Below are positions 22,291 to 62,183 of a DNA stretch of 64,000 nucleotides, in pieces. Within the stretch, counting starts at the first letter, position 1. Each line of letters begins with the position of its first letter. The stretch comes from Escherichia coli (lineage in GTDB: Bacteria > Pseudomonadota > Gammaproteobacteria > Enterobacterales > Enterobacteriaceae), in NCBI RefSeq assembly GCF_001677475.2, contig NZ_CP015229.1; one strand, 5' to 3'. The position numbers were made by a program, and so were the translations under genes. Under the pieces are notes generated by a model. It was given only the letters and a program-made list of their open reading frames with translations. It was not told the origin of the DNA and did not search any database.

Positions 22291-22499
22291 ACACTACTCC
22301 GGTTATATTTTTCTTCCATGGTATATTCACTTAATCAATGTTTTTTTGCGTATATATTTTTATTGATTATATTTTTTTGCTTAACTCAGGATTAAGTTTT
22401 TCTAAAATAGCACAGCCACTTAGGGCAGAGCGAGCAATTCATGCTTTTTTAGGATGGTTGAAAAGCAGGGATGTATTTCAACCATCCATGAATTATCTT

Positions 22500-42531: not shown

Positions 42532-42563
42532 AAAAAAACCCGCTTCAAAAAGCGGGTTTTTTA
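42532..42563. terminator. Bidirectional intrinsic terminator between tatE and lipA
   Basis: aaacccgctt-caaaa-agcgggttt hairpin flanked by an A7 run and a T6 run. Confidence 0.7.
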
Positions 42564-46094: not shown

Positions 46095-47306
46095 TTAACC
46101 AAACCAGTGATGGAACATTAATTTAATGTAATCAATGATTTTGCCGAAGAAGTTACCTTCCGGGATTTCTTGCAACACAACCAGCGGGCGTTGCTCGATC
46201 GTTTTGCCATCAAGCTGGAAGTTGATAGTTCCGACGACCTGATTCTTTTGCAGCGGCGCATGCAATTCACTGCTGTTCAGCACATAGCTGGCTTTCAGAT
46301 CTTTCATGCGACCACGCGGAATGGTCAGGTACACGTCTTTATCAACCCCTAACGAAGCGCGATCAGAATCACCAAACCAAACCGGTTCAGAGGCGAACTC
46401 TTTACCTACTTTCAGTGGGTTAACGGTTTCGAAGAAACGGAAGCCCCAGGTCAGCAGTTTTTTACTTTCGGCTTCACGGCCTTTAAAAGTACGTCCGCCC
46501 ATCACCGCAGAGATCAAGCGCATCTGGCCTTCAGTCGCAGAAGCAACAAGGTTGTAACCTGCTTTGTCAGTGTGTCCGGTTTTGATGCCGTCGACATTCA
46601 GGCTGTTATCCCATAACAGACCGTTACGGTTCAGCTGGCGAATACCGTTAAACGTAAATTCTTTTTCTTTATAGATCGAGTATTCATTTGGTACGTCACG
46701 GATCAACGCCTGGCCGATCAGCGCCATATCGCGCGCGGAGCTGTACTGACCATCAGCATCCAGACCATGTACCGTCTGGAAGTGGGTATTTTTCAGGCCC
46801 AGGGCGTTAACGTAGCTGTTCATCAAGCCAACAAAAGCGTCCTGGCTACCAGCGGCAAAATCGGCCATGGCGACGCAAGCATCGTTACCCGATTGCAGGT
46901 TAATACCGCGGATCAGCTGAGAAACCGGAACCTGCATGCCCGGTTTGAGGAACATCAGCGAAGAACCTTTAAACACCGGGTTACCGGTGGCCCATGCGTC
47001 GTTGCCGATAGTGACTAAATCAGTTTCTTTAAATTTACCGGCTTTCATTGCCTGGCCGATAACGTAACTGGTCATCATTTTGGTCAGGCTGGCAGGATCG
47101 CGGCGGACATCTGCGTTCTGTTCGGCGAGCACTTTGCCGGAGTTATAGTCAATCAGGATGTAGGACTCCGCGTCGATCTGCGGTACACCCGGGATCATAG
47201 TTTTGATATTCAGGTCATCGGCATGTGCAGCAGAGATAAAGGCTGTGCAAAGAGCCGTGGTGAGCGCCAGGCGCTTCATGATACGAGCGGAAAAAATGGT
47301 ATTCAT
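46095..47306 (-). CDS. dacA: D-alanyl-D-alanine carboxypeptidase (PBP5)
   Basis: 403 aa; signal peptide; SLTK, SGN and KTG motifs. Confidence 0.96.
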
Positions 47307-47445
47307 GGTCTGAACTACGACATCCGTGATGGAATTAAAAAAAGTGCCCTACTATAGCAAATGCACTACCGGCAGGCATCTGACTTTCCGCGTGACTTTG
47401 TTAACGTCATTTACAGAAATTGACACATCAGATGCCTGCTTTACG

Positions 47446-48534
47446 CTACTGCGCGGTGGTAATAAATGACTGTAATTGGGCTTCGGTTTGCAAACGTTGC
47501 TGCAAGGTACTGGCTTCGGCTTTGCTGGCGAATGGGCCAAGCTGGATCCGCCAGACCGCGCCATTTTGAGTTACGCGACCGGGGACGCCGAACTTCTGTC
47601 CCAGTTGCTGTTGGTACTGTTGCGCACGCGCCTGATCGCTTACGGCCCCAACTTGCACCATAAAGTTGCCGCTGGCGCTTTGCGAGGCGGCTTGCGGTGT
47701 CACCATTGCAGGCGAGGTTGCAGGCGTTGTCGACGGAGCTGTAACAACGGGCTGTGGCGCAGGTGTTGGTTCGCTGCCTTCCAGAACACCAGGCGCTAAG
47801 GTCGTTGGTGCACCGAGGAAACCGCTGCTGGTTACCGGCGCGCCGGTCGGATCTTCGCTTTTTAGCGTCGAATTACTGACCGGAAGAATGTCACCCTGCG
47901 GGCCAGACACTGAACTTGTTCCCGCGCCACCGCTTAAATCGGGAGGTGCAGGCAGGGCATAAGTCTGTTTAGCAACTGTGGTACAGGCCATACCAGGACC
48001 AGAAAGCGAACCATCCTGGGCGACAATAATCGGATCGATACGAACTTTGGTGTTGTTTGACGTGTTAAGACGGTCAGCTGCCGCGCGAGAAAGCGAAATA
48101 ACGCGGTCGTTGCCGTAAGGACCGCGATCATTAATGCGCACCACGATCATTCGCCCGTTAGCCAGGTTAGTGATTCTGGCGTAGCTGGGGATCGGAAGCG
48201 TTGGATGGGCCGCCGTCAACTGTGTCGGATCGAATGCTTCGCCAGAGGCCGTCAGGTTACTGCCGGGTTCGGCATCATAGATTGCCGCCAGTCCCGCCAG
48301 GCTAAATCGAGACGGATCCTGTACGATTTTGTAGCTTTTACCGTCGCGCTGGTAATCCTGGTTTGCCGTCGCGTTCAGTGGTTCGAAACGCGGGTCCGCC
48401 CCGCTAATTTCAACTATGGGGCCGTTACATACCGCAGGCTGCGGTACACTTACCGTCTGTTGCTGACCATCATCGCTTGTACATGCCGCGAGCATTCCTG
48501 CCGCGATGCAGATCCCGAGCCACTGCTTACGCAT
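47446..48534 (-). CDS. rlpA: Septal ring lytic transglycosylase RlpA (rare lipoprotein A)
   Basis: 362 aa; lipobox LAAC; Pro/Thr/Ala-rich linker; C-terminal SPOR-like region. Confidence 0.93.
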   Translation of the reverse strand: MRKQWLGICIAAGMLAACTSDDGQQQTVSVPQPAVCNGPIVEISGADPRFEPLNATANQDYQRDGKSYKIVQDPSRFSLAGLAAIYDAEPGSNLTASGEAFDPTQLTAAHPTLPIPSYARITNLANGRMIVVRINDRGPYGNDRVISLSRAAADRLNTSNNTKVRIDPIIVAQDGSLSGPGMACTTVAKQTYALPAPPDLSGGAGTSSVSGPQGDILPVSNSTLKSEDPTGAPVTSSGFLGAPTTLAPGVLEGSEPTPAPQPVVTAPSTTPATSPAMVTPQAASQSASGNFMVQVGAVSDQARAQQYQQQLGQKFGVPGRVTQNGAVWRIQLGPFASKAEASTLQQRLQTEAQLQSFITTAQ

Positions 48535-60052: not shown

Positions 60053-60759
60053 ATGGACATGGAGTCGCAAAAAATATTGTTTGCACTTTCCACTCCGATG
60101 GAAATACGCAATAAATGCTGTTTACCTTCGCATTCATCCCCCAAAATGTATTTAGGTACATGCTTTTTGACCTTTCTTCCTCATGGGGAATTGATGGCCG
60201 TGATGACCTGCTGCGCACAATTCACCGAATGATCGATAACGGTCATGCCGCGCGGTTGGCAGGGCTTTATCACCGCTGGTTTCGTTATTCTCCGTGTGAA
60301 TGGCGTGACTATCTTGCTGAACTAAATGAGCAAGGTCAGGCTTATGCGCAATTTGTCGCCAGCACCGCCGAATGCTGTGGCGAAGGGGGAATCAAAGCCT
60401 GGGATTATGTCCGGATGGGTTTTTTAAGCCGAATGGGCGTACTTAATAACTGGTTGAGCGAAGAAGAAAGTCTATGGATCCAGTCGCGCATTCATCTACG
60501 GGCGCTACGTTATTATAGTAACTGGCAGCAATACTTTGCCGGTTATACCTTTGGTCGGCAATATTGGCAGTCTCCCGAAGATGATAATCTTCAGTTATTA
60601 CGTGAATTCTTAGCGCGTAAAGAATACGACGATTCCGGCAATGATATGTTTTATCAATTATTTGCCAGTGATGATGCGTATTACCCTACCTTGTCCTGGC
60701 AACCATTGGCTTACTATTCTGCATGCCCGGAAACGCTTAAGGATATGAGCGACCTATGA
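60053..60759 (+). pseudogene. ybeR: DUF1266 family gene disrupted by a -1 frameshift in a T-run
   Basis: N-terminal 38 codons (60053..) and the C-terminal body (ORF 60115-60759) are in different frames. Alignment to the intact paralog ybeU shows the break at the T5 run 60164-60168. Confidence 0.75.
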
Positions 60760-62183
60760 AAAATTGCTGGCAGATCCTCGATATATCTCAAACGACTGAC
60801 GTCGATATTATCCGCCGCGCTTATCTGGCGCTGTTACCGTCCTTTCATCCAGAAACCGATCCGCAGGGTTTTAAACAACTTCGTCAGGCGTATGAGGATG
60901 CGCTACGGATTGCGCAGTCGCCTGCTAAATCTGTTTGGCAACCAGAAGAATATGAGGTAGCAGAACATGAAATTCTGCTCGCCTTTCGCGCGTTACTTGC
61001 CTCTGATAGCGAACGTTTTCTGCCCTCCGCCTGGCAGCGATTCATTCAGCAATTAAATTATTGCTCGATGGAAGAGATTGATGAATTACGCTGGTCGCTG
61101 TGCACAATCGCCATGAACACTGCCCATTTATCCTTCGAGTGCGTGGTGTTATTAGCAGAAAGATTGCGGTGGTTGCAGGAGGAAAACGTCGGGGAAATAG
61201 ACGAAGAAGAACTGGAATCCTTTTTATATGCCATTGCGAAGGGGAATGTTTTTAACTTCCAGACCATTCTGCATCTGCACGTTGCCGTGCAAAATGACAC
61301 TATCGATTTTTACCAAATGTTCGCTCGGATTTGGTTATCGCATCCAGAATGGCTGACATTGTATTTAGCGCAACATCGCGCAGTGATTATCCCCGATGAT
61401 GCAAAACTGCACAGAAATTTACTCCGCTGGTATAGCGCAGGTCGCCTGGGAATCCCCGAACTCCTGGATTACGCCCGGTCGTGGCGGGAAGCTGAACCTG
61501 ATAATGAAGATGCGCGTTATTATGAATACGCACAACGCGTCTATTGTGGAGAAGGCGAAAGCTTGCTGGCAGAACTTTGTGACTACTGGCGCGAGTATCC
61601 CTCCACCCAGGCGGATGCTTTAATGTTGCAATGGTGCCGTCAGCATCGGGTCGATTATTACCCGTTAGTGGTGATGATGATTGAAGCTCGTGAACTGGTT
61701 AACGATCAGGGAAAACCGCTACTTTATATCCCCGGCGACAGCGCCCGTACGCGTTTTCATTTATACGAAATACTCAGCGATGAAAAACTCTCTGCTCTGG
61801 GGCGTTCACTGGTCGAGATGGTTTTGCACAAAGGACGTAAGCCGCGAATCTCACTCACGCGTGATACAGAACATCCCTTATGGCCATTATATTTAGTTGC
61901 TAAACAATTAGTTCAGGCCAGCCAACCGACAGAAGAATCATTAATGCCGATTGTGAGCCGCCTTGATGCAGAAGCTCGTTGTCCACTGGAAGCATTAATG
62001 ATTCGTCGATTATTAATTCAGGCGGCAAATTTTACCGAGAAGCAAACCGTCGAACCGGAGCCGCAACCGCAGCCAATGCCCGTTGACGATGGTGGGCCGG
62101 GCTGTCTGGGCGTCATCAAAATTATTTTCTACATTTTTATCTTTGCCGGTTTGATAGGGAAAATACTCCATCTGTTCGGGTGA
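60756..62183 (+). CDS. djlB: J-domain (DnaJ-like) membrane-anchored co-chaperone
   Basis: 475 aa; N-terminal J-domain; C-terminal hydrophobic anchor; ATGA overlap with ybeR. Confidence 0.9.

Follow-up and report, generated by a model that had tools for sequence, protein, structure and literature searches.

A conserved stem-loop without a U-tract probably marks the 3' end of rlpA mRNA and shares its DNA with the dacA promoter in Escherichia coli

What does a perfect inverted repeat do in the short gap between rlpA and dacA of Escherichia coli, and does it act as RNA or as DNA? We analysed it within a 64-kb window, by which we mean the whole stretch of 64,000 nucleotides studied here. A preliminary description of this DNA had reported a perfect 12-bp inverted repeat with a 44-nt spacer between the two genes, and the arms indeed proved to be 100% complementary: GCAGGCATCTGA at 47372–47383 and TCAGATGCCTGC at 47428–47439, separated by 44 nt. 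The repeat lies inside a 139-nt gap bounded by the rlpA stop codon (TAG, 47446–47448) and the dacA start codon (47304–47306), both on the minus strand, which carries mrdA, mrdB, rlpA, dacA, ybeD and lipB according to the window and the MG1655 annotation. Positions in the gap are also given as an intergenic index (1, the first base past the rlpA stop on the minus strand; window position = 47446 − index).

The window is from E. coli. A 271-nt query spanning the site was 100% identical to many complete genomes, and it was single-copy in 5424 of 5426 E. coli genomes, with a median of one place per genome. Across the region, MG1655 is identical to the window except for a T6 in place of T7 in a T-run. 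This run (47337–47343) lies right at the beginning of the dacA transcript, and its length ranges from about T4 to T8 in different species.

A long hairpin past the rlpA stop codon

The repeat could simply have arisen by chance, without a function of its own. Exact 12-mer inverted repeats with spacers of 3–60 nt gave 8 k-mer hits at 5 distinct loci in the window, compared with a mean of 0.29 in 200 dinucleotide shuffles of the same 64 kb. About 22% of the shuffles had at least one hit; that is, roughly one in five holds a perfect 12-mer repeat with a spacer of up to 60 nt, and a perfect 12-mer repeat by itself is only mildly improbable. The repeat is not due to chance, however, because of its folding energy (z-score −5.9) and its covariation across species, both described below. 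The retention of a hairpin here by three families and the RNA ends beside the stem also speak against a coincidence, whose probability we put close to nil.

Four other perfect inverted repeats of at least 12 bp were seen in the window. One of them has a near-identical geometry (61935–62004, 13-bp arms GAATCATTAATGC, 44-nt spacer) and sits within an ORF of 475 amino acids on the plus strand (60756–62183). The other three have short spacers (2845–2877, 22452–22487 and 42533–42562), and the last of these, beginning with AAAAAACCCGCTT, is the sequence of the cspE terminator in a published Term-seq table.

The minus-strand RNA is predicted to fold into a 68-nt hairpin that starts 6 nt past the rlpA stop codon (47372–47439, index 7–74, as defined by minimum free energy and by a covariance model). 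Its minimum free energy is −32.4 kcal/mol, with a z-score of −5.9, and none of 200 shuffles was as stable; the fold of the same repeat on the plus strand is weaker (−25.7 kcal/mol). The outer helix pairs index 7–19 with index 62–74 through 12 perfect pairs and one U-G pair. Its 5' arm (47428–47439, RNA GCAGGCAUCUGA) varies in sequence between species while keeping its complementarity to the 3' arm, UCAGAUGCCUGC (47372–47383), which is part of the highly conserved block AAAGTCRGATGCC. A bulge of 7 nt on the 5' side (index 20–26) is followed by an inner helix of 7 bp (index 27–33 with 55–61), in which UUUCUGU (47413–47419) is paired with GCGGAAA (47385–47391). The latter strand is continuous with the 3' arm, and 20 nt in a row are therefore paired on the 3' side of the hairpin. 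The apical region (47392–47412, index 34–54) carries the conserved motifs TGTAAA and, further along, ATTAACAAAGTCAYGCG; a 4-bp helix within it was paired in only 49% of cases across a set of 49 sequences.

The whole interior of the hairpin (47384–47427, minus strand) holds the conserved blocks TGTCA, TGTAAA and ATTAACAAAGTCAYGCG, together with an invariant TGT-N11-ACA. The conservation of these blocks goes beyond pairing, and that of the apical region goes beyond the role of a simple barrier. A search of 46800–48000 with Rfam 15 gave no match at gathering score, only chance-level hits (E = 3 and E = 9.7).

Some features of this interior concern the DNA. In dacA promoter coordinates, the conserved blocks extend over about −82 to −39, where they could act as a UP-like element or as a site for a regulator; when the loop and spacer were compared by eye with the consensus sequences of sigma-54, sigma-E, CRP, ArcA and CpxR, none fitted at the conserved spacing. 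The loop also contains a perfect TTGACA on the plus strand (47420–47425), with a poor −10 candidate, TACGCT, 16 nt downstream, possibly a weak antisense promoter directed into rlpA. The conservation of the TGACA core of this hexamer follows from that of TGTCA, its complement. Extrusion of the repeat as a DNA cruciform was rejected by reasoning, as a 44-bp spacer would make it very unfavourable.

Covariation of the stem and the strand that folds

One DacA scan of species-representative genomes yielded 80 Enterobacterales loci. An rlpA-type C-terminus lies directly upstream of dacA in all of them except L080 (Edwardsiella ictaluri), and the rlpA–dacA synteny holds in 48 of the 48 Enterobacteriaceae loci, where the gap measures 135–153 nt. 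We aligned 49 gaps from Enterobacteriaceae with MAFFT (alignment A2) and also obtained an alignment fitted to a covariance model, R1, that contains both helices (alignment A5).

In A2, the 3' arm block is almost invariant, and few parts vary as much as the 5' arm. Within the 12-bp helix, 82.6% of cells were paired, as against 30–38% when the partner was slid by 1–3 columns, and double changes affected 7 of the 12 pairs (54 cells), which none of 500 shuffles reached. Examples of the pair types found between the 5' and 3' arms are UA (23) and CG (19), AU (15) and UA (11), and GC (12) and AU (8). The inner helix was paired in 78% of cells (77–78% for its UUUCUGU strand), and one of its pairs switches between GC (11) and CG (10). 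Over the 19 pairs of A5, 81.1% of cells were paired compared to 33–47% in slid controls, with double changes in 10 of the 19 pairs (63 cells), again reached by 0 of 500 shuffles; A5, being fitted to the model, leans towards structure, although the unfitted MAFFT alignment leads to the same result. RNAalifold independently called 6 core pairs on A5. It missed the long helix on the plain MAFFT alignment, where the variable 5' arm shifts in register, and we relied on counts for the named structure with slid and shuffled controls rather than on RNAalifold.

The pairing also distinguishes the two strands. Among the non-Watson-Crick cells of 9 core pairs, 30 were G-U and 8 were A-C. Two U-G pairs of the inner helix are kept in 36 and 41 of the 49 sequences, and they correspond to A-C mismatches on the opposite strand. 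Model R1 finds one site per locus, and its sole match in the 64-kb window reaches 89.6 bits on the minus strand, as against 26.4 bits on the plus strand. Given the G-U excess, the conserved U-G pairs and the bias of the R1 score to the minus strand, we conclude that the selected structure is the sense-strand RNA, and neither a DNA palindrome nor an antisense RNA. Compensatory base pairs and strand-specific G-U pairs, the feature expected of a conserved structured RNA, are both present.

Beyond the Enterobacteriaceae, R1 gave weak matches at the same place in Erwinia, Mixta and Pantoea. Folding of the gaps produced a single long hairpin in all Enterobacteriaceae loci, as well as in Serratia and most Erwinia, running from just past the rlpA stop to 8–18 nt before the −10 element of dacA. 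It spans 63–90 nt in Enterobacteriaceae, 106–112 nt in Serratia and 37–75 nt in Erwiniaceae (37–112 nt overall). Rahnella, Hafnia, Yersinia and Edwardsiella have instead a compact hairpin directly after rlpA. That of Rahnella bonaserana (L072) qualifies as a terminator in our consensus scan, which made no call in another Rahnella (L069), in Hafnia (L073) or in Enterobacter (L004).

The preliminary description had proposed either a processing or stability stem-loop or a protein-binding palindrome. The first proposal is supported by the lack of a U-tract, the covarying helix and the RNA 3' end mapped below, whereas the second is disfavoured by the variable 5' arm, the span of 37–112 nt and the G-U bias. 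A concrete form of the second would be a DNA palindrome bound by a regulator of dacA, for instance BolA, with a half-site on each arm. BolA has been reported at the dacA promoter region, and its ChIP-derived motif, YYGCCAGH, is statistically weak (P 6e-3). In line with such a site, GCCTG is present in the E. coli arms and GCCAG in those of Cedecea and Buttiauxella, and the 3' arm overlaps the −35 region, a typical regulator location. Yet the E. coli arms are one base off the core of this weak motif, the 5' arm is poorly conserved in sequence yet remains complementary, and the variation in span is beyond any fixed protein geometry. The G-U excess and the conserved U-G pairs point to a single folded strand, and RNA ends occur at the hairpin foot on both strands. 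The two conserved half-sites at fixed spacing that characterise a palindromic operator were not found, and binding of the repeat by BolA or a similar regulator appears very improbable.

RNA 3' ends and the dacA promoter at the hairpin

The preliminary description had also placed the dacA promoter region in this junction, which agrees with the published start site at window position 47345. Kim 2012 (PMC3415461, supplementary file 2) lists a single dacA start site, NC_000913.2 663224, with 336 reads and a promoter string that ends in TTTGCTATAGTAGGGCA. It falls at index 101 on the minus strand and leaves a 5' UTR of 38 nt in MG1655 and of 39 nt here, as the T-run is one base longer than in MG1655. 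The start is preceded by an extended −10 element, TGCTATAGT (47351–47359), composed of TATAGT (47351–47356; −11 to −6, 5 nt upstream of the mapped start) and a TG two bases further upstream (47358–47359). TATAGT and TG are invariant in 49 species, and the intervening C is nearly invariant. The likely −35 hexamer would be ATGCCT (47374–47379), inside the 3' arm, with a 17-bp spacer.

The 3' arm of the stem thus corresponds, as DNA, to −38 to −27 of the dacA promoter, and the apical region to about −67 to −47. Because the 3' arm doubles as RNA stem and −35 region, the two arms evolve asymmetrically: the 3' arm is frozen by its promoter function, and the 5' arm changes so as to stay complementary. 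The dacA start lies 27 nt downstream of the stem and the hairpin lies wholly upstream of it; the hairpin is therefore absent from the mRNA made from dacA's own promoter and belongs to the rlpA 3' UTR. The preliminary description had missed that the 3' arm covers the −35 region, the position of the hairpin relative to the dacA start, and the second hairpin with a U-run described below.

A consensus scan for promoters and terminators over 46900–47900 detected neither a promoter nor a minus-strand terminator; this outcome carries no information here, because the scan also missed the mapped dacA promoter, which relies on its extended −10. The SMRT-Cappable-seq tables hold no entry for rlpA or dacA. 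An rlpA start site is listed 142 nt upstream of its ATG, inside mrdB, with 88 reads (Kim 2012, PMC3415461). It maps to about 48676 on the minus strand, and its 88 reads compare with 4 at the start of mrdB and 2 at that of mrdA; a large share of the RNA that arrives at the hairpin may originate at this mrdB-internal promoter. Within the dacA 5' UTR, the block CACGGATGTCGT (47317–47328, minus strand) is nearly invariant and resembles the 3' arm (CGGATGYC); in read-through RNA, pairing between this block and the 5' arm is conceivable. The dacA ATG has no obvious Shine-Dalgarno sequence within 10 nt, and RNAalifold places a small conserved helix there.

Term-seq data reveal where RNAs end at this junction. 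Adams 2021 (PMC7815308, supplementary file 1) lists minus-strand 3' ends at 664018 (score 91306) and 664017 (score 41794), classed as 'orphan', the latter given as 54 nt upstream of the dacA ORF. Transferred to the window via MG1655 coordinates, with the table format checked on the row of the cspE terminator, these steady-state ends fall at 47362 and 47361 (index 84/85, A84/U85), 10–11 nt past the last stem pair and 16–17 nt upstream of the dacA start. The preliminary description was to be abandoned if no RNA ends occurred at the repeat; a strong one lies just past its stem. From the ybeD terminator to mrdB, the list has no further 3' end on the minus strand, and none in the U-run, and supplementary file 2 of the same study (bicyclomycin data) contains no Rho-termination region around 663.6–664.2 kb. 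We accordingly assign this 'orphan' end, listed upstream of dacA, to the rlpA 3' UTR and not to a dacA leader.

A weak 3' end was also recorded on the plus strand, at 47445 (MG1655 664101), 6 nt past the hairpin and with the tail UUUACG. It is listed three times, with scores of 1166 and 1788 in two of the rows (PMC7815308), while the minus-strand end is listed twice. The −10 element of dacA is near-symmetric (TACTAT/TATAGC on the plus strand) and could drive divergent transcription from about 47360.

Past the first stem, the minus strand lacks a clear U-run, as had been stated in the preliminary description; the tail there is CGGUAGUGCAUUUG. A second, weak hairpin with a U-run follows (47337–47367, minus strand, dG −8.1, terminator-like), made of a hairpin at 47343–47367 (index 79–103) and a U7 at 47337–47343 (index 103–109), which starts 28 nt beyond the first stem. 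This hairpin overlaps the −10 element and the start site of dacA, and the U-run forms +3 to +9 of dacA mRNA. Many relatives have an alternative pairing at the same place (TGCCT/AGGCA plus TATAGC/GCTATA). We did not accept the second hairpin and its U-run as a conserved terminator, since it shows almost no covariation despite pairing in about 70% of cells, its 3' half is fixed by the −10 element and the start site, and no RNA end lies in the U-run. They are a possible minor contributor.

The mapped end raises the question of whether the first hairpin itself stops the polymerase, as a terminator without a U-tract or as a long-lived pause at about −17 of the dacA promoter, which would insulate the promoter or release polymerase there. 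The 3' end is precise and strong, and its distance of 10–11 nt to the stem base is typical of pauses stabilised by a hairpin. The absence of 3' ends further downstream in the U-run and of any listed Rho region nearby is compatible with such a stop. So is the distance from the 3' end of the hairpin to the −10 element, which remains near-constant (8–18 nt) across families despite the changes in loop length, and a terminator-like hairpin occupies the corresponding site in related genera. On the other hand, the tail CGGUAGUGCAU is not U-rich, and the RNA–DNA hybrid would therefore not be weak; hairpins that lack a U-tract are not known to release the E. coli enzyme in vitro. No terminator was called here by the consensus scan, and Term-seq reports steady-state ends rather than release sites, so that release and processing are indistinguishable by this method. 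We regard a hairpin-driven stop or pause as unlikely, while giving it appreciable weight.

The strength of the end could also reflect a stable small RNA made of the hairpin and its conserved apical loop, derived from the rlpA 3' UTR and acting in trans or binding a chaperone such as ProQ. The Term-seq score of 91306 reaches the level of the ybeD terminator close by (73288) and hints at a stable, abundant species; in addition, the apical region is conserved in sequence and not in structure alone. However, the apical sequence is also promoter DNA, upstream of dacA at about −67 to −47, and conservation at the DNA level could explain it. Rfam offers no matching family, our literature search found no link between rlpA and ProQ or Hfq in enteric bacteria, and no mapped 5' end speaks for such an RNA. 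A small RNA of this kind seems highly doubtful. More broadly, we judge it improbable either that a dual-coded junction stops or releases polymerase at about −17 without a U-tract, or that an abundant hairpin fragment serves as a 3'-UTR-derived regulatory RNA. If true, the dual-coded junction would couple or insulate two peptidoglycan genes, for example with a promoter shielded from read-through or handed released polymerase.

The rlpA message end and its relation to known systems

We consider it fairly likely that the conserved stem-loop, devoid of a U-tract, marks and protects the 3' end of rlpA mRNA. This end would be created by trimming or cleavage and not by termination at the hairpin, and the hairpin is expected to raise the stability of the message. 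According to this proposal, rlpA mRNA would be produced from the mrdA-mrdB-rlpA cluster and from the promoter inside mrdB, and the transcripts would cross the repeat. The RNA would then fold into the 68-nt hairpin, with its outer helix of 12–13 bp, 7-nt bulge on the 5' side, inner helix of 7 bp and apical region. Longer transcripts would either read through towards dacA or be stopped at the weak second hairpin and its U-run. The 3'-to-5' exonucleases PNPase and RNase II would trim these longer RNAs until they stall at the stem; alternatively, an endonuclease could cut in the single-stranded, AU-rich GCA/UUUGC. In either case, the hairpin would block further decay, leaving the 3' end of the rlpA mRNA fixed and protected. 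Since the intergenic region comprises only 139 nt, the DNA would do double duty: the 3' strand of the stem would also act as −35 region of dacA, and the loop as the upstream region of its promoter.

RNase II and PNPase stall about 10 nt from a stable duplex; our literature search returned no citable figure for this distance. Against the proposal stands the lack of a listed Rho region, together with the near absence of untranslated room downstream for Rho to load; for these reasons Rho termination followed by trimming, the usual route for stem-loops of the class discussed below, finds no support here. It also counts against the proposal that the Term-seq file lists the minus-strand end twice and the plus-strand end three times.

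Literature searches on the rlpA–dacA junction and on the dacA start sites found no description of the hairpin or of its overlap with the promoter. The RNA end at the hairpin had been published, without comment, in a table. The junction provides a concrete, conserved case of an enteric message end without a classical terminator, in which half of the stem is reused as a −35 region. This double use accounts for a block of intergenic conservation that is otherwise puzzling, and for the asymmetric covariation of the arms. A mutation in the distal arm would separate the RNA structure from the promoter role at the boundary of two cell-wall genes. No general principle is changed, and the hairpin is a fairly ordinary mRNA-end element.

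Among known systems, the closest parallel to our proposal is the class described by Dar and Sorek 2018 (NAR 46:6797), in which precise 3' ends lie just past stable stem-loops without U-rich tails that shield the RNA from PNPase and RNase II, an idea that goes back to Peters et al. The rlpA junction has both structural features of this class, a stable stem-loop past the gene with a precise steady-state 3' end (664018/664017) and no U-rich tail, and its hairpin presumably forms a barrier to the same two enzymes. It differs in that its hairpin is much longer (68 nt, two helices and a bulge) than the compact, terminator-like stems of the class, and in that its end lies 10–11 nt from the stem and not immediately past it; both points count against our reading. 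Moreover, no Rho-dependent read-through is recorded nearby, and there is no room for a rut site, as the next promoter starts inside the stem.

An intrinsic terminator shares with this hairpin the location directly past a stop codon, a stable stem containing G+C and a nearby RNA 3' end. The RNA ends at the foot on both strands recall bidirectional terminators, and the equivalent site in Rahnella scores as terminator-like. In contrast, the 44 nt between the arms form a second helix in place of a short loop (about 3–8 nt), the tail CGGUAGUGCAUUUG takes the place of a U-tract of about 7–9 nt directly past the stem, and the RNA ends at A84/U85 rather than within a U-tract 7–9 nt from the stem. The hairpin thus fails three of the four defining features of an intrinsic terminator.

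REP/BIME elements are likewise intergenic palindromes at mRNA 3' ends that could block exonucleases. They occur as dispersed copies, whereas this hairpin is single-copy per genome and the sole R1 match in 64 kb, and the MG1655 annotation has no repeat feature at the site. Finally, overlapping terminator–promoter junctions resemble the present case in that a single stretch of DNA provides both the structured 3' end of one RNA and the core promoter of the gene that follows. What sets the rlpA–dacA junction apart is the shared part itself: the −35 and upstream region of dacA, held inside a long-range stem that covaries across families.
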